Part shown: positions 7,894 through 35,169 of the stretch, one piece after another
How the letters are laid out: every line of letters starts with the position of its first letter
Numbering within the stretch: the stretch's first letter is position 1
NCBI GenBank assembly: GCA_043800255.1
Contig: JAZDNF010000006.1
Coordinates: 3,901 to 67,900 of the forward strand
DNA from: Candidatus Altiarchaeota archaeon
GTDB lineage: Archaea; Altiarchaeota; Altiarchaeia; IMC4; SCGC-AAA252-I15
DNA: 64,000 bases
Reading direction: 5' to 3'
Program-made: the position numbers and the translations under genes
Notes under the pieces: model-generated
What the model was told of the DNA's origin: nothing
Databases searched by the model: none
What the model saw: only the letters and a program-made list of their open reading frames with translations

Positions 7894-7923
7894 ACGTTAA
7901 GGGCGCGGCAGATGGTATGCGCG

Positions 7924-10241: not shown

Positions 10242-12773
10242 ATGAGCCAGGGGAACGGGGAAAAGGTGAAAAGCAGGCCTACAACCCCGAAAAAACAAGA
10301 ACAACCTGAAGTCAAAAGCATAGAGCCGAAAAGAATAGAGACGACACAGGACCCTAAGTTCGCATACTCTGAAATCAACGGCATCAAAGTCTTCGGCCCA
10401 AACCCTGTGGAAACCGATGAGAAAGGAGATTTTGTCCACAATTCCACAGTATTCCCCGACGACGGCGTAATAGTGACCTCTCCCAGGATGCACGCCTACC
10501 AAATCCTTAGATATGCGGATTTCCTAGCAGGACAGAGCGGACGACGTCCAGAAGAGGAGGAGAGTAGATTCGCAAACCAGACAGTAAGATGCTTCACGAG
10601 AGGCAAGAAGTATTATATCAGGGTAGAAGAGGAAACTCCGGAGTCGATAGGAAAGTATGCAGCAGCAGCCGAATTATTAGAGAATTTCGTCGAGCCGACA
10701 TCCATAAAGTTCACGGAAATCAGGGATCAGTCGGTTAGAGAGCAATTCAAACGGAGGGGAAAGTACCATCTCGTCGCCCCGGAGCCGATGACAGACGAGG
10801 CTATCAGAGACTACACTGGACACGCTTACGTTCACCTGAATACGGCAAACAGGTACTATCACATGGACTCTGGCGAGCGGCTTCTGACTCCGTCAGAGTT
10901 TGAAAAGATCAGGAGAGACGTAGGAGACAGGGAGAAATTCCTGGGCAGACTCCATGAGATTGTGCAACTAAACGCCGATAAAAAATTACACGAACGGGGA
11001 GAGGTTGAACTTTACAACGTGGACGAACACAGATTCAGCATCCAAAAGGACATCAAAGGGTTTCTTGATATTGCTGAAAAAATCGATGAAACCGGATGGG
11101 ATAAAAGCGACATAAGAACGAAATTCGAATCCCTCGTCGACAGGTTCAGAAATGCCACAAACCCGGAGGACAGGAAAGACAGCATCAACAGCGCAGGATG
11201 GCGTAACAGGATGTACGCCAAACTCAAGGGAATGCCCGGCGAGGAATACCCGACCATGCGCCTTACTCCCGCCCTTTTCATGTACCTAGAATGGTATCCT
11301 GGAGCCGAGATTAAGGACAATAAGATGACATACGACCCAAAGGTCAAACCCGTTGCAAGGGAGATTATAGAACACTTCCATGGCAGATTCCCAAACCTCG
11401 AATACGTCAACATAGGACGCATAAAACACAAACTCGTGGAAGAGACGAAGGTCAGAAGGCCTGGCAGGGAAGTATACCTTGTAATGTTGAGAAACAAGGG
11501 GGAGAAGGAGGAGAGAGCCTTCGAAGTGAGAGAGCAGAAAGTCGATGTGAAATCGATAATCGGCGGATTCCTGAAGGAGGGCAGGATAACCGAAGAAGAC
11601 ATCAGAAACGAAACAGAACAGTATAAACAGTGCCTGAAGGAAGCGCAAAAGAAGTCGCTGGCTTATAAGAACTACGTAAACAACAGGATCATAATCAACA
11701 ACATGCTGGGCATGAGAATGCAAACGCCAGAGCCGTTAAGCCTTGAGAACAGCGAAGAGTACTTTATCTGGAAGTTCATACCAGGCATCGAAACCTCAAG
11801 CATCCCGTCAGTCTACTTCGGAGACAAGAGCTGCGTAACGGAGTCTGCAGTTCAGATGGGAAGGGTTGCCGCAATAAACATGATAACCGGCAGGCGCATG
11901 TTCGACATGGGCACAGAAGTCGCGTCGTTCTCGAAAAGGTTTCTCTCACGCGGACAAAAGCCGGGCGAGATCATGATCGTCGAGCCGGTTACAACGCTCG
12001 AGGAATTAGACAAAAGATTAGACGACCCCGCAAACACGGAGATATACGCCCAAAGCCTCAAAAGAATCCTTTCAAAAGCCGGCGGCGAAGGTCTCGGCGA
12101 CAGAGAGTTCGACGAGATAAAAGGAGCGTTCTACTCGTCCCTTGGGAGAACGTATAATACCATCCGCAACAATTACCTGAAGAATCGTGACGAGTGGAGG
12201 AACCTGTTCGCAAATGTCGAGAAGGACGAGTATGACATACACAACAAATGGCTGAAAGTCCTCGACAGGCTTGAAAAGCACGACGACCCTAGAACTATTA
12301 CAAGAGCGACAGAACAGTGCCTGCAGGAGATCGAGGACATCAGAAAAGTAGAAGCCGGCGAAGGACTCAAGTGGGAGAAGATAGAGAGAGGATACGGGAT
12401 GACGGGAAAACTCGTCAACCAGGCCGGCTTGCACGGCAGACCAGCCAAGACGGTCGCGGCGGCGGTGAAACACTACAAGAACGCTGACAAAAGCCTTGAC
12501 GTGCAAGTCTACGACGACCGTGCTGGAAACTTCGTACCGGCAGAAAGCGTGATAAGTCTCCTCCTCATGGCAGCCACCAAGGGCACGGACCTGCATTTTC
12601 ACGCAACCTGCGACGACGAGAGGATAGCGAAGAGAGTCTTGAACGACATCGGCCACATGATCAACGTCGGGTTCCACGAAACCATGAACGAAAAAGGTTA
12701 CCCGCAATTCAACAGTGAAAAATTGGAGGAAGAGCTAGGCTACCAGCCAGGGGTTTTGAGGATAAAATCGTAG
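10242..12773 (+). CDS. 843-aa protein whose ~720-aa N-terminal region is of unknown function, fused to a C-terminal HPr-like phosphocarrier domain.
   Basis: The C-terminal ~90 aa read GKLVNQAGLHGRPAKTVAAAVKHYKNADKSLDVQVYDDRAGNFVPAESVISLLLMAATKGTDLHFHATCDDERIAKRVLNDIGHMINVGF. This matches the HPr fold pattern including the active-site GLH(A/G)RPA motif, with the His codon at ~12432. The N-terminal region has no P-loop and only weak resemblance to AceK-like atypical kinase motifs (VMLRNKGEKEERAFEVREQKV; AAINMITGRRMFDMG). Confidence 0.75.
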   Translation: MSQGNGEKVKSRPTTPKKQEQPEVKSIEPKRIETTQDPKFAYSEINGIKVFGPNPVETDEKGDFVHNSTVFPDDGVIVTSPRMHAYQILRYADFLAGQSGRRPEEEESRFANQTVRCFTRGKKYYIRVEEETPESIGKYAAAAELLENFVEPTSIKFTEIRDQSVREQFKRRGKYHLVAPEPMTDEAIRDYTGHAYVHLNTANRYYHMDSGERLLTPSEFEKIRRDVGDREKFLGRLHEIVQLNADKKLHERGEVELYNVDEHRFSIQKDIKGFLDIAEKIDETGWDKSDIRTKFESLVDRFRNATNPEDRKDSINSAGWRNRMYAKLKGMPGEEYPTMRLTPALFMYLEWYPGAEIKDNKMTYDPKVKPVAREIIEHFHGRFPNLEYVNIGRIKHKLVEETKVRRPGREVYLVMLRNKGEKEERAFEVREQKVDVKSIIGGFLKEGRITEEDIRNETEQYKQCLKEAQKKSLAYKNYVNNRIIINNMLGMRMQTPEPLSLENSEEYFIWKFIPGIETSSIPSVYFGDKSCVTESAVQMGRVAAINMITGRRMFDMGTEVASFSKRFLSRGQKPGEIMIVEPVTTLEELDKRLDDPANTEIYAQSLKRILSKAGGEGLGDREFDEIKGAFYSSLGRTYNTIRNNYLKNRDEWRNLFANVEKDEYDIHNKWLKVLDRLEKHDDPRTITRATEQCLQEIEDIRKVEAGEGLKWEKIERGYGMTGKLVNQAGLHGRPAKTVAAAVKHYKNADKSLDVQVYDDRAGNFVPAESVISLLLMAATKGTDLHFHATCDDERIAKRVLNDIGHMINVGFHETMNEKGYPQFNSEKLEEELGYQPGVLRIKS

Positions 12774-17150: not shown

Positions 17151-18401
17151 CTACTTCTCTCCAGGGTACATCTCCAGAAGCTCTAATGCGTAATCTCCCA
17201 GTTCCGAGCGCACCTGCCCGCCCGGGTTGTCTTTTCTCACTATATGCCTGAGACATCTTCTGGCTGACTCTTTGCTATTCTTGTCGTAGAATTCCTCGTC
17301 ATCAGCCGGCTTGTTCGCCAGATGATAGGGAGTCCTGCCTGCGAGACGGTCTTCGAACTTTCTGATCACTTTTTCTGTGATGATGTCAGGCCGCCGGTCT
17401 ACTATGCCGTTGAACAGCGTCACCATGTCAGATCGGGTAGAGGCTGACAGCAGGTCGCTTACTATGGCGCCCGCAAGATTCTCCATGAAATCCTCAGTAA
17501 GCAACTGGGGACGTGTAGCCGCGACCCCAGTGATATTCTTCAGCATGTGAGTGTACATCCAGCTGTACTGTTCGTTGGTTATGCTCCTGTCAAAGTCTGT
17601 CTTCCGGAAAAACTCGACCGAGTTTCCAGCTGCCCTGGCGACATAGTGTATTTTTTTGGCGAAAGCTCCCATTGGATGCTTCTCCTTTGTGACAATGTCC
17701 CAGAGGTTCTCATCCCTTTTAGAGATTGTAGCACTGGGCAGTATCTCAACCCCATTTTTGTCAAGCGCCTTGTAGACTTCACGGTTCACGTGCTTTAGTT
17801 TGGGGTCGGCGTCGTTCCCTTCCGGAGAGTCCAACAGTTTCCGATACTCTGCCCCAAGAGTCAGCCTCTTCACCATAGTGCCGAACTCGTCAGACGCCAG
17901 GCCCAGTCCCCTGGTGAAGCCGCCTAACGCTTTGACCGCCCGTTCCTTGGGGGTATCATCCGTCTGTATCACGCTTGCCAGCGCCTTCCCAGCGTACTTG
18001 TAAGTGTCATGGTCGGTTTCGATTATGTTATCGTCTCTTATCATCTCAGAGAGGTCTTTTATCGCCAGGTCAGCCCACTTTGACCTCTGAGCAGGCGTCT
18101 TGAAAACTATCCGGCTCAATGCAAAACCAACATAGGATTTCGCCTCCTTGCCTGCGTTGTACTTCCGAAGGGTGTCAACCAGCAGCTTGTATGCCGGCTG
18201 CGCAATCTCATCCGGCCCGTCTATAACGTATTTATCGAGCTTCTTGCAGGCAGAATCCATCTTCTGAGTGTCATCGCCTTCCAGGATGCCCTTAGCCTCA
18301 GCGATAGTTGATAAAGCCTCCATCAGAAAAGGCTCCCTCAACAGGGGGAGCTTGTCAGAGCCGCCACCCTCCAAGTTCAGCTTGACGATTTTAGTGGTCA
18401 T
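17151..18401 (-). CDS. Hypothetical all-alpha protein (416 aa). Its N-terminal 19 aa are identical or near-identical to those of the adjacent paralog.
   Basis: Starts MTTKIVKLNLEGGGSDKLP. 4-nt overlap with the upstream gene. Last gene of a minus-strand operon. Confidence 0.6.
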   Translation of the reverse strand: MTTKIVKLNLEGGGSDKLPLLREPFLMEALSTIAEAKGILEGDDTQKMDSACKKLDKYVIDGPDEIAQPAYKLLVDTLRKYNAGKEAKSYVGFALSRIVFKTPAQRSKWADLAIKDLSEMIRDDNIIETDHDTYKYAGKALASVIQTDDTPKERAVKALGGFTRGLGLASDEFGTMVKRLTLGAEYRKLLDSPEGNDADPKLKHVNREVYKALDKNGVEILPSATISKRDENLWDIVTKEKHPMGAFAKKIHYVARAAGNSVEFFRKTDFDRSITNEQYSWMYTHMLKNITGVAATRPQLLTEDFMENLAGAIVSDLLSASTRSDMVTLFNGIVDRRPDIITEKVIRKFEDRLAGRTPYHLANKPADDEEFYDKNSKESARRCLRHIVRKDNPGGQVRSELGDYALELLEMYPGEK

Positions 18402-19057
18402 TTTGGTCTGGGCCAGATTTTATTCTTGCGATGAAATATCCTAACATCCTCACTTAGGTTAGGCGCCAATTGGAACCTTTTCCCGCCAAGATGTATCTCG
18501 CCTGAGTGAGCATTAGATCCCACATTCATTCCAGCGTCACCATCCACCATCACGGTTGCGCCGTCCAGCTCGCTGCCTAGGCCGTTTTCTGCGCTGCCGT
18601 GTATCGTCACCTTCCCGGACTTCGCACCAAACGCGGCGTAATTCCCGACATCCCCCAGTATCGTAACCTCCTTCTGATTGTCCAAGCAGCTGCAAAGGTA
18701 GTTCAGTTTTGGCAGGCGGGCCACATCCAACACAATATTATTGTCCGGACAGTTGTTGATAAGGGCGCTCAGGAACATTCCAGCCTGAAACTGGAAGTAG
18801 ACTTCAGTATCAGAGTACGAAGGCAATATCACATCGATAAACCTTTGCATTGCATTAGCGTCGACAGAGACGCCAGAGGCGGCTTCTGAAGCATATAGGT
18901 AGTTGAAGTGCCCTGAAACCTGAGAGGTAAAACAGGATTGATGGTATTTCTCGTCCAACATCCCGAGAAGCCTCTCATCCACCCGGTTATCTCTCAACTT
19001 CGGCAGCCTGTCAGAGCCGCCACCCTCCAAGTTCAATTTCACAATCTTAGTGGTCAT
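18398..19057 (-). CDS. GXGXXG beta-helix domain protein (glutamate synthase domain-3 / FwdC-like).
   Basis: 219 aa. N-terminus is MTTKIVKLNLEGGGSDRLP. The C-terminal half reads GDVGNYAAFGAKSGKVTIHGSAENGLGSELDGATVMVDGDAGMNVGSNAHSGEIHLGG, a GXGXXG repeat pattern. Confidence 0.7.
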   Translation of the reverse strand: MTTKIVKLNLEGGGSDRLPKLRDNRVDERLLGMLDEKYHQSCFTSQVSGHFNYLYASEAASGVSVDANAMQRFIDVILPSYSDTEVYFQFQAGMFLSALINNCPDNNIVLDVARLPKLNYLCSCLDNQKEVTILGDVGNYAAFGAKSGKVTIHGSAENGLGSELDGATVMVDGDAGMNVGSNAHSGEIHLGGKRFQLAPNLSEDVRIFHRKNKIWPRPK

Positions 19058-19099
19058 TTGAGTTCTTGGGGTAGATGGTGATTTTGAAATTCCAGCTCT

Positions 19100-19858
19100 T
19101 CACATTATATCGTCGAATAGTTTTTTCGCATTGTTGATGTAGTTGAGATCGTGTTTTATTATATCAGACACTGTCTCCCTGCGCTTTTCATCTGTTATGG
19201 TTTCCGCTTTCTTCAGCCCGTTTTTGAGAATCCGCATCGCCTTCTCGCCTCTCCCAGAGGGTATGGAACGCCCCAGAGGCGGTTTGGACTCGTCGACCAG
19301 TGAGTTGGCGAGCGCTGCCCCCGCCCACTTGTTAGTCTCGTATGTGAAGGCTTCGCCTGTGAGAGCATCCTCGAGGACGTCAAAAACGGATTTAACAATG
19401 TCCTCCCTGTCGCCGGGCGCCAAGACTATGACCTTCCTAAGCCCCTGGGATGCAGCCTGCTTGGCGTCGCTGTCAGTTTCACTGTCGGTTAGAGCCTCGG
19501 TCAGAAGAGCCATACCAGCATTAGCCCTCTTCCAGTCCGGGTCTTTGATTACAACATCTGCGACAGCGTCGGCAGCCTTCAGCTTGTCAGACAGCGTTGC
19601 CTTTGGATTGAATAGGAGTTCCCCTTTTGTGCCAGCCAGTTCAGGCTCCTTTAGGGGAGGCATCTCCGCGGCATCCTTCTGGGGTTTCTTCTCCTGAGGA
19701 GGCATACTGTAGGGTTGCTTCTTCGCCTCCTTCGTCTCCCCCGTGCGGAGGTCAACGGTAAACCTTCTCGGAAGCTGTTTTTCTCTAACCATTTGTCGGT
19801 TTTTTGAGGTAGGTTTCTTTGGGGCCTGCCGCCTGTTTTCCGTTAACGTATACTCCAA
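19100..19858 (-). CDS. Hypothetical protein (252 aa, HEAT-like helical). The true start may be the internal Met near 19792.
   Basis: Complete ORF. Its 5' end overlaps the bactofilin gene by 74 nt in a different frame; if Met23 is the start the overlap is 8 nt. Lys/Pro-rich N-terminal region. Confidence 0.5.
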   Translation of the reverse strand: MEYTLTENRRQAPKKPTSKNRQMVREKQLPRRFTVDLRTGETKEAKKQPYSMPPQEKKPQKDAAEMPPLKEPELAGTKGELLFNPKATLSDKLKAADAVADVVIKDPDWKRANAGMALLTEALTDSETDSDAKQAASQGLRKVIVLAPGDREDIVKSVFDVLEDALTGEAFTYETNKWAGAALANSLVDESKPPLGRSIPSGRGEKAMRILKNGLKKAETITDEKRRETVSDIIKHDLNYINNAKKLFDDIM

Positions 19859-20366
19859 CCTTTGAAGTTGCTCCCTCCTTTGACAGGACGTCGCCCTTCT
19901 CAGCCTCTATCCTATCCTCTGCGGAAACCCTGCCAGACCATGATATGACGCTCATCCTGGCTGACACCTTGTTGGCTGAGATGTCGCCTTCAGCCTGGAT
20001 CTCGCCCCTGGAGGAGGTGATATTCCCTTTCGCCTTTATGCCAGCCCCCCTTGAATGGATGTCGCCTTCGACGTTTATGCTGCCGTCGGCTGTTATCTCA
20101 CCAGCAGCTATGACAGAGTAAGCCTTGAAGTTCTCATGGGGGATGTGAAGTTTACCGTCCGATATAACCGTCTTGGCAGACGCTGATGAGTCCAGGTACA
20201 GGTTCTCGCCCGGCTCTCCTCTGACGACACTATTGTTTCCGCGCACCACAGTATAGGCTTCGCCGCCCACGTCTATGGTCTCCTTCCCGTCAACAACCTT
20301 GATCTCCTCAACATATTCCGTATCTTCCCGCCTTTTGGTTCTTTCAATGCTGCTCATGTTGATCAC
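19785..20366 (-). CDS. Bactofilin-like beta-helical cytoskeletal protein (DUF583 family).
   Basis: 193 aa. The core reads ITADGSINVEGDIHSRGAGIKAKGNITSSRGEIQAEGDISANKVSARMSVISWSGRVSAED, matching the bactofilin winding repeat (G.I..G.I/V). Confidence 0.7.
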   Translation of the reverse strand: MINMSSIERTKRREDTEYVEEIKVVDGKETIDVGGEAYTVVRGNNSVVRGEPGENLYLDSSASAKTVISDGKLHIPHENFKAYSVIAAGEITADGSINVEGDIHSRGAGIKAKGNITSSRGEIQAEGDISANKVSARMSVISWSGRVSAEDRIEAEKGDVLSKEGATSKVGVYVNGKQAAGPKETYLKKPTNG

Positions 20367-20437: not shown

Positions 20438-22753
20438 TTAATGGAGGATTGATTTGATGTCATCGTCTGATAGCATTTCCACACCGGTTATTCCAAGGCG
20501 CTCCGCCAGAGTTTTTAGGATGTCCCTTGCACCGTAGCTTTTGATTGCCGACTCATCAATGCCGCCGCCCATCTGGTTCACGACATCCTTTAGGATTCCG
20601 CGTATTGTTAAGCTGTTCTTGTTCAGGTCCTCCACCGGAACATTGCCTATGCCCCCGTGTTTTTTCGACAGGCTCCTGGCAGCTTCAAGCCTTACCGGCC
20701 TCCGGATGTCATCAACCAGCCTCAACGCCTCAGGCTCCCTGCTCAGTCTCTCGCATATCTGCTTTTCTATGACAGCATCAACTCCTTTCGTCCCCAGCCC
20801 GAATTTCTGATGCTCATCAGCCACCTTCTTTCTTAGAGACCTCTGGGACATGGTTGGGTCCGCATCAAGGGCGTCAAAGTATAGCATTGCGATCTGCTTG
20901 TTCCTCTCCCAGTCAGGCTGCCTGTAAAGAGTGTCAAACAGCTTCCCCCTTGTTTCTGCCGGTTGACTGGCGAGAATCTCCCTGAACTCTTTAGGACTTA
21001 CTGGCTGAATTTCACCCCACTCCACCAGATAGCCGTTAACCTTCTCAGCAACCAGCGGCTGCTCGCTTAAACGTTTGTATGCCCCTGAGATTGCGTCCAC
21101 AATGGTCTGTTTGCCCCGCTTGAACTCATCAGCCAACTGTTTGAGTTCAACCCCGCCAGTTAGGTGCCGTCTCATGGTCTCACGATCCCTTTCAGAGCCT
21201 ATGTCAGATTTTTCAGAAGTTAGCGGGTTATTTCTAGGCACCTTGGATATGAACCACCCTAGGTCTGCCTGCGGGACATGCGAGAGCACTTCCCTGACAG
21301 TTTCTGCAGACACCTTGGGGATAGACTTCAGCCTCCCTGATTCTGCAAGCAGCTCTGAGACAGCATGCGGCCTTTTGCGGAGACGCTCTATGGAGTTCGT
21401 AACCGCCTTCTCGGACACGTGGGAGTCGTACTCTTTCATCCTGTTGATGTCCGGGCAGGAGTACGCTTCCCTGAAATGCAGCCTCATTATCTCGATGTCC
21501 CTGTCCCTGTTCCCGGTCTTCGGCAGACCGGACATTATCTCGTTGAACTTCTCATCGCTTGTGCTCCTCAGAACCCATCTCACCGCTTCATTAGTGATTT
21601 CAGGGTTCTCTATGCGCTGTCTGAACCCGTTTAGCTCCCTGATAACATGCAGGTTCCCTCTAAGCCCTTCTATAACAGCTGCAGACAATGTGATGGGTCT
21701 ATTCTTTCCCACGCCGAACCGCTCAGAAAGCTCTGCTACTGTGCTGTCGTCTTCCTGATCGAAGTAAGCGCTCAACAGCTCCCGCTCCTTCGGATCAGAG
21801 GGGTATGCGGTTGACTGGCTTAGTATGCGCTCCCTATCGGTTGAGGATATCAGACGCAGAATTTTTCGGGTATCCTCGACAGAAGGCATTTGCAATTTAA
21901 TTCTGGCTCCCGGGCCAGGTATGGAGTTTTCAATGTGCTCTCTCAGATCGGAGTTTTTCAGGACATTCTTGATCGCCTTTGTCTCGCGGCCGTCAAGAGT
22001 TCCTTGCGCCAATCCCAATTTGGAGGCTGCCTGCGCTCTTGTGATGGACCTCGCACCAAAGCGCAGTCTCAGTATATCAGAATCAGATTTAGGGACTCCT
22101 CTCCGAAAGCAGTCAGCCAGAAAGTTATCAAATTTGTCACCTGGCATCTGCTCCAGCAAAGACCTGTAATAGTCCACTTCCTCCCCGGAGGGCATCAGAC
22201 CGAGTTTCTCGAACGCCCTTGACTCTACCCTGACAATCTCTTTAATGCTGGTGTCCGTCAGCTCCCTGATCCTTTTGTCGCCGTGGCCTTCCTTGAAACG
22301 CAGTGACAGTATGTTCCTCTCCTCGTCGGTCAGAGCCTTGGAGCCGATAAGCGTGGCCTTCTCAGCAGGATCCATCGACTTCAACATCTTATGTACTTCC
22401 CTGTATGAGATTTTCCTTTTGTGATAGGGAATGACGTCAGGTTTCTTCGGGGGGCTTATGGACAATCCGACAACGCCCTCAGAGGTTATCGCGTACGCGT
22501 CTGACTGTCCCAACTCAGAGGACAGGAACTTTTTCTTTCTCTGCGGGGGAACGTCTGCGCGTTTGACCTCAGAGACTTCCAGGCGCCTGCCCTTCCCGCT
22601 GAGGTCGCCCAGCTTTTTGACGCTTATCTCCTTAAGCTCGTCTCCGTCGCGCAGGTAGACTTTCGCGTTCTCAGAATGAAGCTTTCTCAATAGCTGTTCC
22701 TTCAGCACCGGAATCTGGTCGTCGCTTATGTCTGCAACCTTTATTTTCGCCAT
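20438..22753 (-). CDS. 771-aa protein containing about five tandem sigma-70 region-4 / LuxR-like HTH repeats.
   Basis: Repeats include EERNILSLRFKEGHGDKRIRELTDTSIKEIVRVESRAFEKLG, SDILRLRFGARSITRAQAASKLGLAQGT, RDIEIMRLHFREAY...VSEKAVTNSIERLRKRP, RETMRRHLTGGVELKQLADEFKRGKQTIVDAISGAYKRL and NKQIAMLYFDALDADPTMSQRSLRKKV. Each resembles the sigma70_r4 pattern (..ILxLRF....T..EIA..LG.S...V......A..KLR). Confidence 0.65.
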   Translation of the reverse strand: MAKIKVADISDDQIPVLKEQLLRKLHSENAKVYLRDGDELKEISVKKLGDLSGKGRRLEVSEVKRADVPPQRKKKFLSSELGQSDAYAITSEGVVGLSISPPKKPDVIPYHKRKISYREVHKMLKSMDPAEKATLIGSKALTDEERNILSLRFKEGHGDKRIRELTDTSIKEIVRVESRAFEKLGLMPSGEEVDYYRSLLEQMPGDKFDNFLADCFRRGVPKSDSDILRLRFGARSITRAQAASKLGLAQGTLDGRETKAIKNVLKNSDLREHIENSIPGPGARIKLQMPSVEDTRKILRLISSTDRERILSQSTAYPSDPKERELLSAYFDQEDDSTVAELSERFGVGKNRPITLSAAVIEGLRGNLHVIRELNGFRQRIENPEITNEAVRWVLRSTSDEKFNEIMSGLPKTGNRDRDIEIMRLHFREAYSCPDINRMKEYDSHVSEKAVTNSIERLRKRPHAVSELLAESGRLKSIPKVSAETVREVLSHVPQADLGWFISKVPRNNPLTSEKSDIGSERDRETMRRHLTGGVELKQLADEFKRGKQTIVDAISGAYKRLSEQPLVAEKVNGYLVEWGEIQPVSPKEFREILASQPAETRGKLFDTLYRQPDWERNKQIAMLYFDALDADPTMSQRSLRKKVADEHQKFGLGTKGVDAVIEKQICERLSREPEALRLVDDIRRPVRLEAARSLSKKHGGIGNVPVEDLNKNSLTIRGILKDVVNQMGGGIDESAIKSYGARDILKTLAERLGITGVEMLSDDDIKSILH

Positions 22754-22762: not shown

Positions 22763-24514
22763 TCACAATTCTGCAATGAACTTGCTGGCCCTCCCGCTTT
22801 TCTCCAGGCTGTCGAATACCGACTCTAGGTGACCCCTAACCCTCTGTGAGAGGTCCTTATTATCATGCGCTTTAAGAAGGTCTCGTATCGCGGGCACTGC
22901 AATGCCGCCAGAAGCGAATTTCGCAAGCGTTTCCAAGCCTGATGTGGCAGCCATCTTCTCCCTGTCGGAGGTTCTGCCGCTGTTAAGGTCTTCCGCGAAA
23001 TCTTCGCGCGCCTGCTCCATGCGGGACCTTGCCACAGCCGACGTGTTCATCCCCTTGAAGCCTGCCTCGATTGTCCTGCGGACTTTCTCAGGGAGGCTCT
23101 TATCACGCTGTAATCCGATAACGTCCTTGACAGCTTGTACTCCGACGTCCTGGGAGGAGAATTTGATCACATTCACGAGGCCTGCAAGAAGCCACTGTTT
23201 CAGTTCGATCAGCTGGTCGCCTGTGACCCCCTCCGGTTCGTCTCTTATCGCTGACACCATGTCGTCGTGGGTCTTATCTATCATCCCAGGAGGCTTGTTT
23301 TTCAAGTCATACAGTAGACCATAATGCGCCCAGTATTTTGTCCCGTAGTCTCTGCCGTTTCTCAGGGCATCAGACAACGCCTGATAGGCCTTATCCTGTA
23401 ATCCCTCAGGCCCATGGGATGCAATAGCTGACAGACTGCCTGCAGCCATGTACTGGCTTGTCAATCCAGGCACGTCAGTGCCGAAGTCCGAGCCTTCGGC
23501 ATTCAGTAGGCCGTCCCTGAAGACGTCCAGAAGATTGGAGGTTACCTTCTCGGGGTATCTCCTTAGTATGCTCTGCAGTCTTTGGTCGACGTGTTTTCCG
23601 GCAAGAACCGGCAGGTTCCCGCTCACGGCTGATTTGGACAGCAACAGAAGCTGGCCGGTTGTGATTGATGATCCGTTGTAGAGTATGGAATCCACCACTT
23701 CAGCAGCAGCATATCTGACGTCCTTGGAGGAATCTCCTGAGAAAGCGTCCAGAAGCCTCTCGCATATGTGTGTTCCGATTTTCTCATGCCCGCTCACCGC
23801 CAGTTGGGCGACATTATCCCTCAGATCGTCTTTGTAGTTTCGTGTTCGTCTATCCCTCCCCTCGAGACTCCTACTCTTCGTCAGCCCGTCAATCAGAGTG
23901 TCGGCTACACCAACGGTTAGGATATTGTGGAATTCAGGCCTCTTGTAAACCGACTTCAAAGCCCTGTGGATTACCCAAGAGTTTGATTTGTCCCTCGCGA
24001 ACTCGTTCGCCAATATCTGAACCTCGTCAGAGGTGACGAGTTCAGGATGCCTCCACATCGAATCCGCAAGATTGGAGGCGCATGCGTCCCGCGCCTCTCC
24101 GTTACCCCACTTTGCGACCGCGTCCGACATCATCCTGCGCGCCCTGACTGACCTGTCTTTTGGAGCGTTTACTAGAATGCGCCTTAGCGCTTCTCCTGAC
24201 TCGTGCTTCGAAAAGTCCGGCGAGTCAGCGCTTCTGAGAACCTCTTCAAGCACTCCGAAGGCTTGGTCAACGGTGTCAGCATGTTCCTTCGGAGCCCTGA
24301 TTATGATCTGCGACAGGCCCTTGGCAGCATTCACTTTGGGCATCTGCTGATAAGGCCTTTGGCTGTATTCTCCCTCCCCGAAGAGGGCGTCCCTGAAGTC
24401 TCTTATGTTCTCGCTTAATGCTGGTTTCAGGGGGATTGCTCGTACCTTGTCCTTCTCCCCGTCAGGCGCTTTTTGCAGGCTGAAACCGTCTTTTTGGATT
24501 TCCTCGATAGACAT
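22763..24514 (-). CDS. Hypothetical HEAT/ARM-like helical repeat protein (583 aa); first gene of the operon.
   Basis: Complete ORF, 9-nt spacer to the downstream gene, helical repeat character. Confidence 0.55.
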   Translation of the reverse strand: MSIEEIQKDGFSLQKAPDGEKDKVRAIPLKPALSENIRDFRDALFGEGEYSQRPYQQMPKVNAAKGLSQIIIRAPKEHADTVDQAFGVLEEVLRSADSPDFSKHESGEALRRILVNAPKDRSVRARRMMSDAVAKWGNGEARDACASNLADSMWRHPELVTSDEVQILANEFARDKSNSWVIHRALKSVYKRPEFHNILTVGVADTLIDGLTKSRSLEGRDRRTRNYKDDLRDNVAQLAVSGHEKIGTHICERLLDAFSGDSSKDVRYAAAEVVDSILYNGSSITTGQLLLLSKSAVSGNLPVLAGKHVDQRLQSILRRYPEKVTSNLLDVFRDGLLNAEGSDFGTDVPGLTSQYMAAGSLSAIASHGPEGLQDKAYQALSDALRNGRDYGTKYWAHYGLLYDLKNKPPGMIDKTHDDMVSAIRDEPEGVTGDQLIELKQWLLAGLVNVIKFSSQDVGVQAVKDVIGLQRDKSLPEKVRRTIEAGFKGMNTSAVARSRMEQAREDFAEDLNSGRTSDREKMAATSGLETLAKFASGGIAVPAIRDLLKAHDNKDLSQRVRGHLESVFDSLEKSGRASKFIAEL

Positions 24515-25863: not shown

Positions 25864-26240
25864 AAAACAGGATACTGATAATTGGGATAATAGCGCTGCT
25901 TGTCTTGTCCAGCCCAGGATGCCTCAGAAAATTGAGAGGCGGACAGAGAGCCACCACAATCGTGCCAACGACCATAGCAGAGACTCAACAGGCTGCCCCA
26001 ACAGACGAGGAAGCCTCCGAAGCAGAGCCGATAGCTGACATAACCTCTGAAGAATCCAAGCTGACGCCTCCGGACGTTGACTTAGACTTAGACCTCGAGC
26101 CAACAACGACTGTTGAAACCACCATCCCAGAGGTAATGTCAGACGAAGACCTGGCAGAACTTGATACCATCATAAACAACATCAACACCATAGAAACAGA
26201 ACTGTACGCAGGCGACCTGGACCTGGACATCAGCCTGTGA
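25860..26240 (+). CDS. Small acidic secreted lipoprotein-like protein (126 aa).
   Basis: Signal peptide MKNRILIIGIIALLVLSSPGC, then a D/E/T-rich region. 4-nt overlap with the upstream gene. Confidence 0.5.
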   Translation: MKNRILIIGIIALLVLSSPGCLRKLRGGQRATTIVPTTIAETQQAAPTDEEASEAEPIADITSEESKLTPPDVDLDLDLEPTTTVETTIPEVMSDEDLAELDTIINNINTIETELYAGDLDLDISL

Positions 26241-26351
26241 GCCCCCATTAGTTCCCTTCTTAGGGGACTAGGGCGAGCCACAGGCCGCACCAAGATAACG
26301 GGGGATTGAGAGCAAGGGAATCAGTAAGAAGTCTGGGATTGTCTCTTGCAG

Positions 26352-26374
26352 TCATTGCTCGTCTTTGTGATATA
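26352..26374. repeat. Direct repeat copy 1 (tcattgctcgtctttgtgatata).
   Basis: 22/23 identity to 27269-27291. The match extends ~12 nt further (tctcttgcag versus tctctggcag) across a 6-nt indel. Confidence 0.6.
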
Positions 26375-26432
26375 ACCTTAAAAAAGAGGATATGATAGTA
26401 TTCCTAGATCTATTTGAGGCATAGTGTTGGTT
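26352..26432 (-). pseudogene. Truncated remnant of a relE-like toxin gene 3' end.
   Basis: The minus strand encodes ...NTIISSFLRLYHKDEQ*, bounded by an upstream in-frame stop. This matches the C-terminus of the intact RelE at 27269-27517 (...KIIFLDLYHKDEQ*). The terminal 23 nt are a 22/23 match. Confidence 0.4.
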
Positions 26433-26460
26433 TTATTTTAGCATTTCGATATTTGATGTA

Positions 26461-26955
26461 ATGTCAAACGCTGGCCCCGTTATTCTGTATTTGGATAATA
26501 CCGAGCTTTACGGCTCCTTGAAGAAAGCGATAAAACACTATCTAACTGGAGGTACTGGAGGTGTACGATCTAAGTTTCTGGATTATCTAAAGAAGTTGCA
26601 GGATTCGGGGGGTGTCGTTGTATTAACTTCTGAGCTCGCTGAATTTGAAGCTATTAGACGACTGCTCACGGATTTCCCAGAATTGACGTTTAACAAGGCT
26701 CTTGAAGCTTGGATGGAGTTGAGGGGAAGGTATGATATTCGTTCAATAGATCTCCGAGACTGTAAGACAATAAATCTTGACCTTAAATTCTTCCAGAAAA
26801 CAGGATTCGACTATAAAGATGGGATGCATTATTCAGTGGCAAAAAAATATGGGGCTTTTATTGTGACTGGAGATGGGAAATTTGGAGAAACGGCAGAGCA
26901 GGTATACAAGGGTAAAGTACTAAGAAGAGGGGACGTATATCAAAAATTCAAGTAA
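26461..26955 (+). CDS. PIN-domain protein (VapC-like nuclease fold), 164 aa.
   Basis: The N-terminal Asp sits in ILYLDNTELYG. C-terminal AFIVTGDGKF resembles the PIN TxDxxF motif. AT-rich codon usage. Confidence 0.55.
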   Translation: MSNAGPVILYLDNTELYGSLKKAIKHYLTGGTGGVRSKFLDYLKKLQDSGGVVVLTSELAEFEAIRRLLTDFPELTFNKALEAWMELRGRYDIRSIDLRDCKTINLDLKFFQKTGFDYKDGMHYSVAKKYGAFIVTGDGKFGETAEQVYKGKVLRRGDVYQKFK

Positions 26956-27268
26956 TTATTTAGATTTCTTAATGATTTTAGCTAAATCTTTTGCTATGGT
27001 ATCTAGATTAACCCTGTTAGACACTCCTTTTACCTCAGTTACAGGAATCCGAAAACCATTAACTTTCAGGGTTTTTTTCACCGCATGGATTTGCATAATA
27101 GCTCACCCGTATACAATATAATAGAGGATATAGAACTTAAAAAAGGGCCATTTTTGTTTATTCTACTCAAACGTGCATTTACTTCTTAAAACAGCCTTCT
27201 AGGCAGTATACAGTTAGTTTCTGTTTTTCTGGGCAGCGTTTTTCCATGTTTTTCTCTGGCAGGATCAC

Positions 27269-27291
27269 TCATTGCTCGTCTTTGTGGTATA
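27269..27291. repeat. Direct repeat copy 2 (tcattgctcgtctttgtggtata), which is the 3' end of the relE coding sequence.
   Basis: See copy 1. The two copies flank the PIN gene 26461-26955, about 915 bp apart. Confidence 0.6.
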
Positions 27292-27517
27292 GGTCTAGGA
27301 AGATTATTTTGTCCTCTTTTTTGAGGTGCATGTATGACAGGCGGAATGGCGGGATTTTGACTTCCCTGCTGTCCTTTCGGACGTAGCGCATCGGTTTTCC
27401 GACTTCAGGATTGCTGACTATCTTCTTAATCTGCTTTTTGACTCGTTCTTTCAGGTCTCGGTTTTTGATTCTCTTTATTATGTTCTCAAAATGCGGTTCG
27501 TATGCGACAGTTACCAT
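27269..27517 (-). CDS. relE: RelE/ParE-family type II toxin.
   Basis: 82 aa. The C-terminal ...RLSYMHLKKEDKIIFLDLYHKDEQ pattern is typical of RelE/StbE toxins. 7-nt overlap with the upstream antitoxin gene. Confidence 0.7.
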   Translation of the reverse strand: MVTVAYEPHFENIIKRIKNRDLKERVKKQIKKIVSNPEVGKPMRYVRKDSREVKIPPFRLSYMHLKKEDKIIFLDLYHKDEQ

Positions 27518-27780
27518 GTCTCAAGTTCAGCCAGGAATTTGTCGCCGCTAGTCTCCTTGAACTTGCCCTTCTCGTATCTTTCCAACGCCTCCACAGTCCT
27601 TTTCGCGAACTTCAAGTCTTCCATGAAAGTCCCACCCAACTCCCGGACCGGTTTGAGTATGAACTGGCGGTCTTTTTTGATGATGACGAATTTATCGCCC
27701 ACATTGAACCCCTCCCGCATGTCCTGCGGTATCACAACCTGACCCTTGGAACTTAATTTGGTAACGTCCACATTAATCAT
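27511..27780 (-). CDS. AbrB/MazE/SpoVT-family antitoxin.
   Basis: 89 aa. ...LSSKGQVVIPQDMREGFNVGDKFVII is a swapped-hairpin AbrB/MazE motif. Immediately upstream of and overlapping relE. Confidence 0.7.
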   Translation of the reverse strand: MINVDVTKLSSKGQVVIPQDMREGFNVGDKFVIIKKDRQFILKPVRELGGTFMEDLKFAKRTVEALERYEKGKFKETSGDKFLAELETW

Positions 27781-28096
27781 CTAGATCACCATAATAAGAT
27801 TCGTCTTACCAATATATAAACCAACATTCTGGGCAAAAAACCCACCAATAGTCGCGGAAGCGGGGAGTTGCCCCTTCAGTTTTCCGTTGGAGAAGCAGAG
27901 TTTCCTGCGTCGCCCGCTCTCCCGCACATCCAAGTGTAGTGTAATACAGTAAAAACATCACAAACAACGGAAAAATAGGGGGCTGTGCGAGCAATATGGA
28001 CAGGTAAATGCATAGTTGGCCCATATTTTATTGCGGGTAAAGCCGGTAGACCAATATACCTTGGAGTGAACGTCTCCAGTGTCTGCCGGTACTGTG

Positions 28097-28960
28097 TCAC
28101 TGTTTCTGTCCTCTTTTCCTGACTATTCTTTTCAGTTTTTCTGGAATTTGAAGGTAGTTTTCAGATGTTATTACGCTTCTTCCGCTCTCGTACTCTAGTT
28201 TTTTTCTTGCGTCGCCGGCTATGGTGCCCCCTCGTCTGGCCACTGTTTTGTTTTGGATAAATCCTCTTGCATCCCTTTTACGGGCTATCTCCGTCGTTGC
28301 CGCCTCTCCGAGCATGGTGAATATCAGCTCCAGGTCGGTCATATGGTCCCGCAGGTTCTCGCGCTTTAGGCCCTTGTATTTCAGGTATTGACTGGGGGTC
28401 ATGCCGAAGGTGGCGTCCGATATCTCAGCCGTCAATATGGCGAATTCTGTGTCTTGTTTAACTCCCCTCTTGTTCCATTCTCCGGTAAGTTCGTCTCTTA
28501 CGGCGATACCTCTCACTCTTTTCTCAATCCAGTCCTCAGAGTAGCCTTTTGCTTGGTAAATCCCTCGCATCCGTCCCATAGCCAGTTCAGGATTCCCTAT
28601 CTCCTGCACTCTCTCGTAGCCGACTTTCGCAAGCCATCTCTTGAAAGGTTCTGCTTTCTTGGAGGGGATAGATTGTATTATCCTGAACATAGACTCTGTG
28701 TTGGCGCAGTCTGTTAGGTATTTTTTGCCGTCTGGTGCGGACAGTTTCAGTTGTACCCAAATTGGGGACAACTGAAGTTGTGCGAATTCCCTCTCTTTGA
28801 CCTTCCCCCAATACTGGCGGGGTGTCGGGCTGTCAGTCAAAACCTGGACGACGTCCACGACCGAGAAATACCATTCCTTATCATGCCAGACCCTACGAAT
28901 CTGTTTGCCCTGAAAAACGACCAACGAATTATCCTCATCCATACCAACCACAAACAACAA
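28097..28960 (-). CDS. Bro-N domain protein (phage antirepressor / DinD-like family).
   Basis: 287 aa. N-terminal VVFQGKQIRRVWHDKEWYFSVVDVVQVLTDS fits the Bro-N pattern. Island context. Confidence 0.65.
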   Translation of the reverse strand: MLFVVGMDEDNSLVVFQGKQIRRVWHDKEWYFSVVDVVQVLTDSPTPRQYWGKVKEREFAQLQLSPIWVQLKLSAPDGKKYLTDCANTESMFRIIQSIPSKKAEPFKRWLAKVGYERVQEIGNPELAMGRMRGIYQAKGYSEDWIEKRVRGIAVRDELTGEWNKRGVKQDTEFAILTAEISDATFGMTPSQYLKYKGLKRENLRDHMTDLELIFTMLGEAATTEIARKRDARGFIQNKTVARRGGTIAGDARKKLEYESGRSVITSENYLQIPEKLKRIVRKRGQKQ

Positions 28961-29014
28961 TACATATTAACTCTAGAAAGCCCTTAAAAACACCGCGAGC
29001 AACGGAAAAATAGA

Positions 29015-29713: not shown

Positions 29714-29771
29714 TCTCTCCGTCTAACTTCTTTTCGTACCAATCAAGAGGAAATATGTGGAACATAATGTT

Positions 29772-30659
29772 TTATGTACTATCTGTTTGTTTTTGAGAAT
29801 TGATTTCATCGATCAACATTTTTTCGAATGAGAGGTGAAACTCTAATGTTCGGGAAAATGTTTTGTCCATCCAATCTAACGTTTTTACAGAAGTATACTC
29901 ATCACCTTTTCTCAGAAAAGGTTTATTCGGAATCCTATGACACCATGTTTTTTCAGCAGGATTGCCAGTAATTGAAAATATCGTTTCTGAATGAGAATGA
30001 AAAGACATTCGTTTTCTTCCATGAGCCACATAACGTCTAAGCTCATTTAGTTTGGGTGTACTGAGTATCTCGATTATGTCACCATACTCTTTTTGCGTCC
30101 GTGAATATTTTTGTAGTTCTTTTTCATAGTCCGTGACTGGCTTCTGAGGCGTAAAAATCCAGTTATAAGATTCTACCAGAAGGTACTCTTCGAAGGAGGG
30201 AGCTATCTGCGTTGTCCCTTTGTTTTTTAGTTGCTTAAATAGATTACCAAAACCAAATTCAGGGTCGTACTTCCTGCGGAGGGTTATCCTAAATAATTTT
30301 GCTAATGAATCTAAACTGCCGCGTAGGGATAAAATAAAAGCATCAAGTTCAAACTCCAGAAGAACGTGGAACTTGGATTTCTCAGTTATTTTTTCATCTG
30401 AAGAATATGCCATGGAGTAAACTGAATGCATCTTCTGAAAAAGAAAATAGTGAAAACATGCACTTTCAAGAGAATGTGAAAGGCCAGATATTAGTTCCTC
30501 GAATAGGTGTTTATCGTCTGCAAGGATGCTCTTCTCAAGTTCTTTATCTAAATGTTTACTTCTTTCGAAAAAATCACCGAATTTTCCATTAAAAAAAGAT
30601 AAAAACTCTTTCTCAGAAAAATCAAGATTCAATCCATTATCCTGTTCCATCTTCGACAA
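29772..30659 (-). CDS. Hypothetical protein (295 aa). It lies directly downstream of, and overlaps by 23 nt, the Type IIG R-M gene.
   Basis: Complete ORF. The overlap suggests translational coupling with the upstream R-M gene. Confidence 0.45.
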   Translation of the reverse strand: MSKMEQDNGLNLDFSEKEFLSFFNGKFGDFFERSKHLDKELEKSILADDKHLFEELISGLSHSLESACFHYFLFQKMHSVYSMAYSSDEKITEKSKFHVLLEFELDAFILSLRGSLDSLAKLFRITLRRKYDPEFGFGNLFKQLKNKGTTQIAPSFEEYLLVESYNWIFTPQKPVTDYEKELQKYSRTQKEYGDIIEILSTPKLNELRRYVAHGRKRMSFHSHSETIFSITGNPAEKTWCHRIPNKPFLRKGDEYTSVKTLDWMDKTFSRTLEFHLSFEKMLIDEINSQKQTDST

Positions 30660-33606
30660 TTTTTATTTCGTCTTCCGTTAGGCCATATAGCTTATACACG
30701 AGCGAGTTTATCTCATTATCTGTGGCCTCAATCTGCCGCTCCAAAACAGACCTCTCCTGAGGAGTTTTAACACCAGCCAAATGATTATGCAAACCCAACA
30801 TACGAGAAACCAAAGAAACAACATCATCATGCTGTTTCTTCTCAAGAGGATTTGAAAAGTCTATTCGTCTTATTGAGATTTTTGATATGCTATTCCAGAA
30901 ATATTCGTATATCCCTCCACTTTTTAATTTTCCTATGCTCTTGAATCTGTATGTTAAAAGTTTTGAATTCAACAAACCTAGTAAGTATAGCAGATCTTCT
31001 GGTTGATTGTTTTCGAATAATACAGTCGTATCTGTTAAGCCTATAAATTCATTAGCATAATCTATTGCAAAACGATTATATTTTGCAAGATATGGGCACA
31101 TTATTTTTTTTCTGTCATAATGTTCTTTATGGAGGGGCCATGTATACTTCCACCATTCACAGTCCCCACGTTTGTATGCTGCTCGTGCTTTTAATTCACT
31201 TGAATTTTCAAGGAGATGTTTTTGAACAGCATTGGGAAGATTATCAAATTTAATAACATCTTCTAAATATAACAAATAGTCTCCTCGATCTTTAATGAAG
31301 AATCGTTGGATATCTGAGTTTGATGCCCGGTTATAATAGTTTCCCTTTTTTACACCCCAACTAATTATCTTATCTGACGTTATTTTTCCAAAAACATTAT
31401 TCCTACCCGTTTGCATACCTTGACCAATAATAAGGATTTGCCCTAATTTCTCTCCCTCGTTATCGATTTTCTCGTTCAATAATGCGTTGTCCTCTGAAAC
31501 GAAAGACCATGGCTCTGAAGTTAAGTTAGATTGTCCTATTCTTATCTTTTGAAAAATAGAAAAATTCTGAATTTGTCTACTTAAATTTGATGTTAGTAGT
31601 TCATCTCCTAACAATTTGTATACATCGATCTTTCCATTTTTCGAGCTTGATTGTAGGTTGATTATACAGGTTGTAATACCTACTCGGGGGAATATAGGGT
31701 AATTCTGAAAATCAATTATCTCAGAAATTCTTGAATTTTCAAGGATATAACCCCTCAATTTATCTGCTTTGTATGCTTCAAGGAATGCTCTTGAAACAAT
31801 AAAGCTGATATAATCTTGAGACAGCTGTAGTGCTTTTCCAATAAAGTAGAAAAGTATATCCGTTTTATCATTGTAGATTTCAGGATAACCCTTTTTTATG
31901 GCTTTCAATCTAGGGTCTTTTTTACCCCACGTATCATCAATGTTCAAATACGGCGGATTCCCTATCACTGCATCAAACTTGAAGGGGAATTCTTTTTTCC
32001 AGTTGAATGTGTTTATCCGGAGCGTTTCTTCTTCGGTGAATATTTTGGTCTGGCCTGTGTAGAAGTCGGGGCCGATGAGGCTGTTCCCGCATTTGATGTT
32101 ATTGTCCAGGTCGGGCAGTACGCGGCCTCCGAGGCGTTTCTGGGGTTCCCTGTGCTCGTCCTCCAAGACTTTCAAAAGTAGATTAAGCTTTGCGACCTCG
32201 ACGGCCTGCTCGTCAATATCAACACCGTATATGTTGTTCAAGAGTATCCGTTTCTTCTCGCCCAATGTCAGATACCATTGTCCGCCTTTGCCCTGATAGA
32301 CGGCATCCTTGTTTTTGCCGGGATCGTGACTTACGTACCAGTCCCTATGATAATCTAAAAGCTTCTGATACGCTCCAATCAAAAACGAACCTGAACCGCA
32401 CGCTGGGTCGAGAACTTTCAGTTTCTCAACCTGCTTGGGAGATTTGCCCTCAATAAGCCTTCCGACAGTATTTTGAACGATATAGTCTACGATGTATTTT
32501 GGCGTGTAATAGACGCCGCCGGCCTTCTTCACCTCTGGCTTTTCCTCGACTTTGGCGCGATGGCCTTCGGTAAGGCGTATTACTTTCCCTAGGAACTGCT
32601 CGTAGACGTTGCCGAGGATGTCAGCCCCGATGACTGAGAACTCATAAGGGCAATTCGGGTAATACAGGTTCTTGATCATGTCCCTGAAGACTTTATCATC
32701 AATCTTCAGGTTCGGGCAGACGTAATCCGGGAAAGACGTCCGTCCCTTTTCCTCTTTGAAATAGAATATCCCAGAATTGTATTTCTCATCAGCTTTTTCG
32801 AAAAGCCTCAGCAAATGGGTGTAAATGTCCTCCTTCTCCGATATCTCCTGAAGCTGTTCGTATGGTTCTATCCCCCGATCCTCGCATATTCTCAAGAATA
32901 TTATCCGGTCTATGGTCTTCTGGACTGCATAATTTATCTCACGAACAGAGTATTTTGGATTCCTCAATGCGATGTTCTTTGCCAGCTCATCCCTCCACCT
33001 CTCAATCTCCTTCAGGAATTCGTCATCCACCTCGGATGTGCCTTTTTTGCCCTTGACAGATTCAGCATACTGGTCGAACAAGCCGTGCTCTATCGAAGTC
33101 TTGGCGAAAATATTTGCTATCTCATCCCAACGGGTCGCATACTCGTCATAGCGTACGTACAATATCCTCCCAACACTGGCAGAGTCGTTTGGCAAGGGTT
33201 TCTTACGGCAATCATATACTGCAAACTCTTCGAAATCGGTTAGAACAGCGAGAGGCAGTTTCGCGCTCCAGGAATATCTCCGAATCTGATATGCCGGGCT
33301 GACATCGCCCTTGATGTTCACAGAAGGCTTTTTAGTCTCGAGGAAAAATTTTCGTGTCCCGCCGATACGGAAAGAATAATCCGGAGCCTTGATGTTCTGA
33401 CCTATTCTAATCGCATCCTCGTGGATCACATCCTTGTAGGCTTCAGCGATTCCCTTAACATTACGAACATCCCAACCCAATTCCTCAAAAAAGGGATTGA
33501 TGAATTCCTCCCTCAATTGAGTTTCATTATAAGCAGCGCTCAAATATGATTTCTTGTTCCACTCAAATCTCTCAACCAACTCAACAATCTTCTCCGGCGC
33601 AGCCAT
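30637..33606 (-). CDS. Type IIG restriction-modification enzyme: fused endonuclease, gamma-class N6-adenine DNA methyltransferase and target-recognition domain (Eco57I/MmeI-like).
   Basis: 989 aa. The N-terminus has a restriction-enzyme-like motif (...ETQLREEFINPFFEELGWDV...). MTase motif I is LDPACGSGSFL and motif IV is VIGNPPYLNI. A long C-terminal TRD-like region follows. Confidence 0.85.
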   Translation of the reverse strand: MAAPEKIVELVERFEWNKKSYLSAAYNETQLREEFINPFFEELGWDVRNVKGIAEAYKDVIHEDAIRIGQNIKAPDYSFRIGGTRKFFLETKKPSVNIKGDVSPAYQIRRYSWSAKLPLAVLTDFEEFAVYDCRKKPLPNDSASVGRILYVRYDEYATRWDEIANIFAKTSIEHGLFDQYAESVKGKKGTSEVDDEFLKEIERWRDELAKNIALRNPKYSVREINYAVQKTIDRIIFLRICEDRGIEPYEQLQEISEKEDIYTHLLRLFEKADEKYNSGIFYFKEEKGRTSFPDYVCPNLKIDDKVFRDMIKNLYYPNCPYEFSVIGADILGNVYEQFLGKVIRLTEGHRAKVEEKPEVKKAGGVYYTPKYIVDYIVQNTVGRLIEGKSPKQVEKLKVLDPACGSGSFLIGAYQKLLDYHRDWYVSHDPGKNKDAVYQGKGGQWYLTLGEKKRILLNNIYGVDIDEQAVEVAKLNLLLKVLEDEHREPQKRLGGRVLPDLDNNIKCGNSLIGPDFYTGQTKIFTEEETLRINTFNWKKEFPFKFDAVIGNPPYLNIDDTWGKKDPRLKAIKKGYPEIYNDKTDILFYFIGKALQLSQDYISFIVSRAFLEAYKADKLRGYILENSRISEIIDFQNYPIFPRVGITTCIINLQSSSKNGKIDVYKLLGDELLTSNLSRQIQNFSIFQKIRIGQSNLTSEPWSFVSEDNALLNEKIDNEGEKLGQILIIGQGMQTGRNNVFGKITSDKIISWGVKKGNYYNRASNSDIQRFFIKDRGDYLLYLEDVIKFDNLPNAVQKHLLENSSELKARAAYKRGDCEWWKYTWPLHKEHYDRKKIMCPYLAKYNRFAIDYANEFIGLTDTTVLFENNQPEDLLYLLGLLNSKLLTYRFKSIGKLKSGGIYEYFWNSISKISIRRIDFSNPLEKKQHDDVVSLVSRMLGLHNHLAGVKTPQERSVLERQIEATDNEINSLVYKLYGLTEDEIKIVEDGTG

Positions 33607-33681
33607 CTCTACAAGTTATTATCGAATAACAAGATTAAATCGTTAATAGTCCTGATTTTCCAATCTACTCCGTTTCCTATT

Positions 33682-34899: not shown

Positions 34900-34980
34900 A
34901 TAGAATAGTGGATTATTTAGTTAAAGGTGGGGGGAGCATTGGAAAAATAGTCTAACCAATACAAGCCCCTATGTTTAGAT

Positions 34981-35100: not shown

Positions 35101-35169
35101 CTTGGAATGGGAGAAGTGGGCTTGGGAGCGTGATGGTGTGCCTGCTCGCGTACCCGTCCAATGAATCAT

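Follow-up and report, generated by a model that had tools for sequence, protein, structure and literature searches.

We find that the 771-amino-acid (aa) protein encoded by the minus-strand open reading frame (ORF) 20438..22753 of a 64-kb window, which is the whole stretch of Candidatus Altiarchaeota DNA analysed here, carries six tandem repeats of ~95 aa, each laid out as two leader helices, a helix-turn-helix (HTH) of the sigma-70 region 4 type and a trailing helix. An earlier note on this DNA, made from the letters alone, had proposed a tandem array of sigma-70 region 4-class HTHs on one archaeal chain, and the profile searches, the predicted fold and the archaeal character of the window bear this out, along with the coordinates and the strand. 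The novelty lies in the architecture, that is the six-fold array; the domain class as such is already known. As for function, we lean tentatively towards a multivalent DNA-binding regulator or architectural protein.

The repeats were delimited by eye and with MAFFT. In the coordinates of a hidden Markov model (HMM) they occupy aa 114-194 (R1, 22172..22414), 192-277 (R2, 21923..22180), 290-380 (R3, 21614..21886), 385-473 (R4, 21335..21601), 480-577 (R5, 21023..21316) and 585-685 (R6, 20699..21001), all on the minus strand. They are preceded by an N-terminal region of aa 1-112 (22418..22753, minus), which is basic (isoelectric point, pI, 9.4), is predicted with low confidence as mixed alpha/beta and has no family match, and they are followed by a C-terminal helical module of aa 686-771 (20441..20698, minus). 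Five repeats of ~60 aa had been announced in the earlier note; the tandem arrangement stands, and the HMM coordinates correct the count to six and the length to ~95 aa. The peptide quoted there, ERNILSLRFKEGHGDKRIRELTDTSIKEIVRVESRAFEKLG, was found at aa 145-185 and is the HTH core of R1.

Pairwise identity between the repeats is 12-21%. Self-BLAST of the protein gave no internal matches and the repeats are detectable by profiles only; since self-BLAST is blind to them, they are old and strongly diverged. When each repeat was scored against a profile of the other five, the scores were 9.3-28.4 bits and were equalled by 0-2 of 1000 shuffles. The top value belongs to R4, which has no Pfam match of its own. 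A profile of R1-R3 recovers R4, R5 and R6, and one of R4-R6 recovers R1, R2 and R3, collinear over the whole unit in both directions. The residues conserved across the repeats are mainly hydrophobic or capping. Judged by these sequence comparisons, R1-R6 are homologous units of ancient duplication. In the leader part we also noted a motif, (V/I)SxE(E/D)VRxxL (for example at aa 480-512), which resembles two adjacent Rpo4/F motifs, ISREDVRAVL and ITPDEVRSIL. The leader profile does match this archaeal RNA polymerase subunit (E 0.005), as two pieces of ~9 bits that are probably a chance helix-cap motif, and we made no use of the match.

The assignment of the repeats to sigma region 4 builds on several profile comparisons. 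With the Pfam family Sigma70_r4 (PF04545) the whole protein scored 38.8 bits (E 6.5e-10) over three stretches. Scanned singly, R1 was the best match with 20.4 bits, followed by R3 (18.3 bits) and R2 (15.0 bits), all under the gathering cut-off of 24.1 bits, and the single-repeat Pfam scans of R4, R5 and R6 gave no HTH match. As no single repeat reaches the cut-off, membership in Sigma70_r4 is taken from the sum of the scores together with the consensus and the fold. The consensus of the six repeats scored 31.6 bits and covered model positions 6-49 of 50; an 11-repeat consensus that includes the relatives described below scored 33.2 bits. The consensus scores for HTH_10, UPF0122 and Sigma70_r4_2 were far under these, with 22.6 bits for HTH_10 and 18.0 bits for UPF0122. 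Searched against the PDB, the six-repeat profile found RpoH region 4 (E 1.1e-5), RpoD (E 1.1e-4) and SigA, over a range of 1e-5 to 1e-3, and reached GerE only at E 0.19. From the Sigma70_r4 and PDB scores together, sigma region 4 is nearer to the repeat than LuxR/GerE is. The proposal that every segment matches a sigma70_r4/LuxR pattern thus survives for the protein as a whole; the single matches are limited to R1-R3, under the cut-off, and the GerE part of the pattern is weak.

A structural model of R5, built from the 11-repeat alignment, had a predicted local distance difference test score (pLDDT) of 83.8 and a predicted template modelling score (pTM) of 0.73. It consists of six helices, namely the two leaders, which are followed by a disordered loop, the three helices of the HTH core and the trailing helix. 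The HTH structures listed with this model were DNA-bound DeoR and SorC HTHs, region 4 of SigR, RpoD and FliA, and SigA; further structures listed were UPF0122, NarL/LuxR-type domains, KorA and the archaeal Tfx-type EnfR (8hno). In a model of the full-length protein the identical six-helix pattern appears in all six units. Within it R1 is modelled at pLDDT 80-87 and the C-terminal module at 80-90, the recognition-helix part of R2 is modelled at low confidence, and R6 has an insertion between HTH-core helices 1 and 2. A Foldseek search with the full-length model returned nothing significant. According to the R5 model, the fold of the module is a helical HTH of the sigma4 type and not a generic helical repeat. 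Two of the checks that had been proposed for the array, by HTH profiles and by structure prediction, hence turned out in its favour, with significant profile matches and a predicted HTH fold.

It should be stressed that this is no sigma factor. The HTH of region 4 is present, a match to region 2 (Sigma70_r2) is missing even at E <= 10, and the window of the host is archaeal, which does not suit work with the bacterial-type core RNA polymerase that a sigma factor serves. The sigma family models stay under their cut-offs; the NCBIfam model TIGR02937 (sigma70-ECF) reached 25.2 bits where 42.9 are required, and it matched with its C-terminal part only (positions 111-163 of 165). In sigma-70, region 4 is present as one C-terminal copy beside regions 2 and 3, whereas here six tandem copies occur without region 2 or 3 in an archaeal host, and each copy adds the two leader helices and the trailing helix and has not kept the -35 contact residues.

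Nor does the protein belong to the other families that use such an HTH. The Tfx model TIGR00721 scored 15.1 bits against a cut-off of 60.25 and matched the HTH of R1 only, and a Pfam scan of the protein found no Tfx_C domain. Tfx proteins (EnfR/TON_1525, MTH0916) have a single N-terminal HTH and an acidic alpha+beta Tfx_C domain and form dimers, whereas the present chain has six HTHs and no Tfx_C. The LuxR/GerE/NarL-type tetrahelical HTH, HTH_10 (Bat type) and UPF0122/YlxM likewise come as one HTH per chain, and all score under their cut-offs and more weakly than Sigma70_r4: the whole protein gave 12.6 bits with HTH_10 (PF04967, cut-off 23.1) and 13.6 bits with UPF0122/YlxM (PF04297, cut-off 22.7), and the LuxR/GerE model (PF00196) did not accept it either. 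Chains with several HTH-type modules are known from Myb (R1R2R3), Pipsqueak (four Psq) and AraC/XylS (two HTHs). The likeness is that of small helical DNA-binding modules on one polypeptide by which extended or composite sites can be read. These proteins come from HTH families other than the present one, most of them occur in eukaryotes, and in prokaryotes the copy number is lower (two in AraC); no homology between them and the 771-aa protein was seen.

That archaea do not use sigma factors had been presented as the oddity of this gene. This premise carries less weight than it might seem to, since region 4-like HTHs are established DNA-binding domains of archaeal regulators: in the Tfx family (EnfR, MTH0916) such an HTH binds promoters (PMC10570040), and LuxR- and HTH_10-type domains are catalogued in archaeal regulators (PMC5413776). 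As these proteins already use such HTHs, there is no paradox in meeting an HTH of the region 4 type in an archaeon.

The array itself is very rare, and it is the array, not the type of HTH, that is the unusual part. Four relatives emerged when 1.84 billion representative proteins were searched by phmmer without filters, two with the repeat and two with the C-terminal module only. The first repeat-bearing relative, P0003 (847 aa, Logan SRR22387818), has three repeats and a Pro-rich tail; the second, P0004 (1085 aa, MBU4311871.1, a Candidatus Omnitrophota 'response regulator, partial'), has two repeats along with transmembrane segments and a receiver domain. Each of the two aligns collinearly with R4-R5 at 29% identity, with R4 placed on its repeat 1. 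They share the leader, HTH and trailer repeat with the 771-aa protein, whereas the rest of each is unrelated and both are without the C-terminal module. The description of the array as very unusual is well founded, as these two proteins with 2-3 copies are the only other carriers of the repeat in that collection. The multi-repeat architecture predates the 771-aa protein.

The C-terminal module has a distribution of its own. Its conserved part comprises ~75 aa (ORF aa 684-758, window ~20480-20704) with the consensus LSxKYGGIGNVPxExL...LTLxGIxxDVxNxxGG, and no Pfam or PDB sequence match was found for it. It is the part in common with P0005 (301 aa, one XRE HTH and two sigma-like HTHs), where it lies at aa 204-278, and with P0002, a 3140-aa multi-enzyme fusion with a cluster-mate (P0011) from a Deltaproteobacteria metagenome-assembled genome (MAG), where it occurs twice, at aa ~1563-1641 and in a second copy downstream. 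Identity to these copies is 31-36%. By eye the module bears some likeness to a helix-hairpin-helix ('L[TS]LxGIGxD[VL]I'); this is not supported by Pfam or the PDB and we do not claim it.

Further collections yielded nothing beyond the four relatives, for which reason we regard the six-fold array as genuinely rare. A word-indexed search with the 771-aa protein returned only itself, and one with the 11-repeat alignment gave no matches, the parent protein included, which is probably a limit of this kind of search with short profiles. When genome, metagenome and viral contigs were scanned for related loci, neither the repeat alignment nor the C-terminal module nor the full-length protein brought up relatives, the sole exception being a match of 24 residues, and marginal, in a Flavobacteriales MAG. 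The contigs of P0003 and P0004 are only ~3.5 kb long, and those of P0005 and P0002 have no informative neighbours. An origin from a virus, a plasmid or a defence system was considered and rejected, as PHROGs, PADLOC, phage and plasmid searches with the protein were without a match.

The gene is native to archaeal DNA. It is annotated at NCBI as MFH0860063.1 (V1921_02585), a 'hypothetical protein' of a Candidatus Altiarchaeota archaeon MAG, and it is carried by a 118.7-kb contig. The genes of ribosomal protein L10e and of Cdc6/Orc1 are found in the same window at 8.7-13.9 kb, 3-12 kb downstream when counted from the 3' end of the operon described below. The ORF has a GC content of 0.52, its codon usage correlates with that of the conserved/core genes of the window (0.86), and it is located outside a low-GC island (26-38 kb), continuous in GC and codon usage with the L10e and Cdc6/Orc1 genes. 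The archaeal origin follows from these nearby genes, the NCBI name and the core-like codon usage; scanning the window for Rfam families and for tRNAs gave no matches. Neither transmembrane segments nor a signal peptide are predicted in the protein, and its overall pI is 9.1.

Two alternatives are affected by this setting. The ORF might be an artefact, either through a bacterial contig or chimeric assembly misbinned in the archaeal MAG or as a non-functional reading frame. Its singleton cluster from one MAG, the absence of the exact protein from the contig index and the bacterial nature of its nearest named relatives could be read in that way. The archaeal L10e and Cdc6/Orc1 genes stand in the same contiguous window, however, with GC and codon usage running on from them to the ORF, and 771 codons with six collinear homologous repeats and distant metagenomic homologues are not a chance ORF; we thus consider an artefact extremely improbable. 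Alternatively, the protein might be a horizontally acquired mimic of bacterial sigma region 4 directed at bacterial-type transcription machinery, a decoy that would engage anti-sigma factors or the RNA polymerase flap belonging to co-resident bacteria or to an element. Its best sequence matches are indeed bacterial sigma region 4 and not archaeal Tfx, and the only named relatives are bacterial MAG proteins, for the repeat from Omnitrophota (P0004) and for the C-terminal module only from Deltaproteobacteria (P0002/P0011). Against this stand the lack of a signal peptide or secretion signal, the native codon usage, the position outside the low-GC mobile island and the empty searches of phage, plasmid and viral collections; further, no mechanism is known that would deliver the protein into a bacterial cell. 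We regard such a mimic as very unlikely.

The genes next to the ORF bear on what the protein might do. A gap of 9 nt separates its ATG from the upstream gene (22763..24514, minus), which probably belongs to the same transcription unit and encodes a 583-aa HEAT-like orphan (HEAT_2 E 0.0055) for which a word-indexed search of 5.8 billion proteins found no homologue. Downstream on the same strand follow four orphan genes (17151..20366, minus) for a 193-aa FapA-like beta-solenoid (E 0.002) and for proteins of 252, 219 and 416 aa, and these probably form a single operon with the ORF. The 252-aa (19100..19858) and 416-aa (17151..18401) proteins are weak paralogues of the 583-aa protein (BLASTP E 1e-4 to 5e-3), and a HEAT-like repeat signature is seen in all three mutually paralogous orphans. 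Four of the neighbour proteins were found in the protein collection, all as 'hypothetical protein'; three of the four stand alone in their clusters, while the 583-aa protein shares its cluster with one other member, a 48-aa fragment. PHROGs and PADLOC gave nothing for the operon proteins, barring a sub-threshold LmuB match (PADLOC, E 0.008) for a divergent 409-aa gene. Because the neighbours are orphan, unnamed and without PHROGs match, the context offers no further functional handle, and its hint is limited to an operon of helical-repeat and beta-solenoid proteins.

In the reading we favour, a native, cytoplasmic and lineage-restricted protein would consist of a basic N-terminal region, six modules and a conserved C-terminal helical module. 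Several of the HTH modules might contact DNA simultaneously, the N-terminal region and R1-R2 being the best candidates, while the more degenerate modules might act as spacers or partner-binding surfaces. The protein would be co-expressed with the orphans encoded beside it in the operon, both HEAT-like and beta-solenoid. DNA binding is favoured by the HTH fold, by the basic character of the N-terminal region, R1 and R2, by the overall pI and by the example of archaeal Tfx/EnfR, where an HTH of this type binds promoters, and two of the relatives point the same way: a receiver domain stands beside the two repeats in P0004, and in P0005 the C-terminal module is placed after the XRE and sigma-like HTHs.

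Several results weigh against DNA binding. The contacts of sigma-70 to the -35 element are said to have been assigned by Campbell et al. in 2002 to R584, E585, R586, R588 and Q589. The positions aligned to these five residues are not conserved in any repeat, and the residues aligned to R588/Q589 are D/G in R2, V/D in R5 and D/A in R6. R3-R6 are near neutral, R3 being slightly acidic (pI 5.9). A search for repeated motifs, which had been suggested as a way to candidate binding sites, found no tandem or periodic DNA motif by exact k-mers in the one 64-kb window, and the cooperative binding to repeated DNA sites that the earlier note suggested has no support there. PDB profile searches with R4-R6 alone, or with R4-R6-type cores together with their P0003/P0004 counterparts, gave no HTH match and did not reach sigma region 4, and these three repeats are assigned to the HTH class through internal homology and the model. 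The full-length model is poor (pLDDT 63, pTM 0.33), and the geometry of the array is not fixed by it. Finally, the helical-repeat and beta-solenoid partners in the operon would suit a structural assembly equally well. Since no repeated target was found and the sigma -35 contact residues are not conserved, we infer DNA binding rather than observe it.

The same evidence gives room to the main rival explanation, in which the HTHs would have lost DNA binding and the protein would be a protein-protein scaffold, a helical-repeat platform on which the operon's HEAT-like proteins and beta-solenoids assemble with it. Sigma region 4 also binds the beta-flap, anti-sigma factors and activators. The unconserved DNA-contact positions, with acidic residues there in three repeats (R2, R5 and R6), the neutral or acidic R3-R6 and the mainly hydrophobic and capping conservation across repeats are in keeping with a scaffold. 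The extra leader and trailing helices could pack repeat on repeat, and both HEAT-like paralogues and beta-solenoids abound among the operon proteins. On the other hand, such packing between repeats is not confidently predicted by the full-length model, the overall pI and the basic N-terminal third of the chain fit a scaffold poorly, and genuine signalling or DNA-binding domains, a receiver in P0004 and an XRE HTH in P0005, accompany the repeat or the C-terminal module in the relatives. We consider a scaffold possible, though on the whole rather unlikely.

Going further than the multivalent DNA-binding protein which we favour, one may speculate on a prokaryotic 'polydactyl' HTH protein, in which each of the six sigma-region-4-derived modules would read a short DNA element. 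The array might then recognise a long composite site, or wrap or organise DNA, and work with the HEAT-like and beta-solenoid operon proteins as a chromatin-like or regulatory assembly. This would be the HTH counterpart of zinc-finger, Myb and TALE arrays, made in an archaeon out of the module that is familiar above all for reading the -35 element in bacteria; we hold it to be improbable in this full form.

If the array does bind DNA via several modules, it would be a rare natural case of modular multi-HTH recognition in prokaryotes, and the sigma region 4 module would be reusable as a repeat unit outside sigma factors. Two small uncharacterised families would also be defined, the ~95-aa repeat of leader, region 4-like HTH and trailer and the ~75-aa C-terminal module, and both putative families have so far been met only in uncultured groundwater-type lineages. 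Should the protein be a degenerate scaffold only, it would be a curiosity of a fast-evolving orphan operon.

Some further features of the window were noted. The adjacent operon genes 17151..18401 (416 aa) and 18398..19057 (219 aa) are otherwise unrelated and start with the same 23 residues, MTTKIVKLNLEGGGSD(K/R)LP..LR, at 87% identity; this common start is encoded by a 70-nt direct repeat of 84% identity at 18334-18403 and 18990-19059. Either a tag that the two N-termini share or a partial duplication of recent date could explain it. The low-GC island beside the operon (~26000-38000) has a GC of 0.35-0.47 against 0.51-0.54 elsewhere and a GC at third codon positions (GC3) of 0.46 against 0.69. 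Its genes include an Eco57I/MmeI-type restriction-modification fusion (30637..33606), a PD-(D/E)XK/Cas4-like nuclease, a Bro-N protein and a PIN-like protein; probably a mobile or defence island has become integrated here. On the minus strand an ORF at 2-7957, of >2652 codons, extends to the left past the end of the window. With its signal-peptide-like N-terminus, MKRGILFVALFCLISSVS, it probably encodes a giant secreted or surface protein. Domains of the HPr type are uncommon in archaea, and an 843-aa protein encoded at 10242..12773 on the plus strand carries one (PTS HPr, PF00381, E 8.8e-8) towards its C-terminal end.

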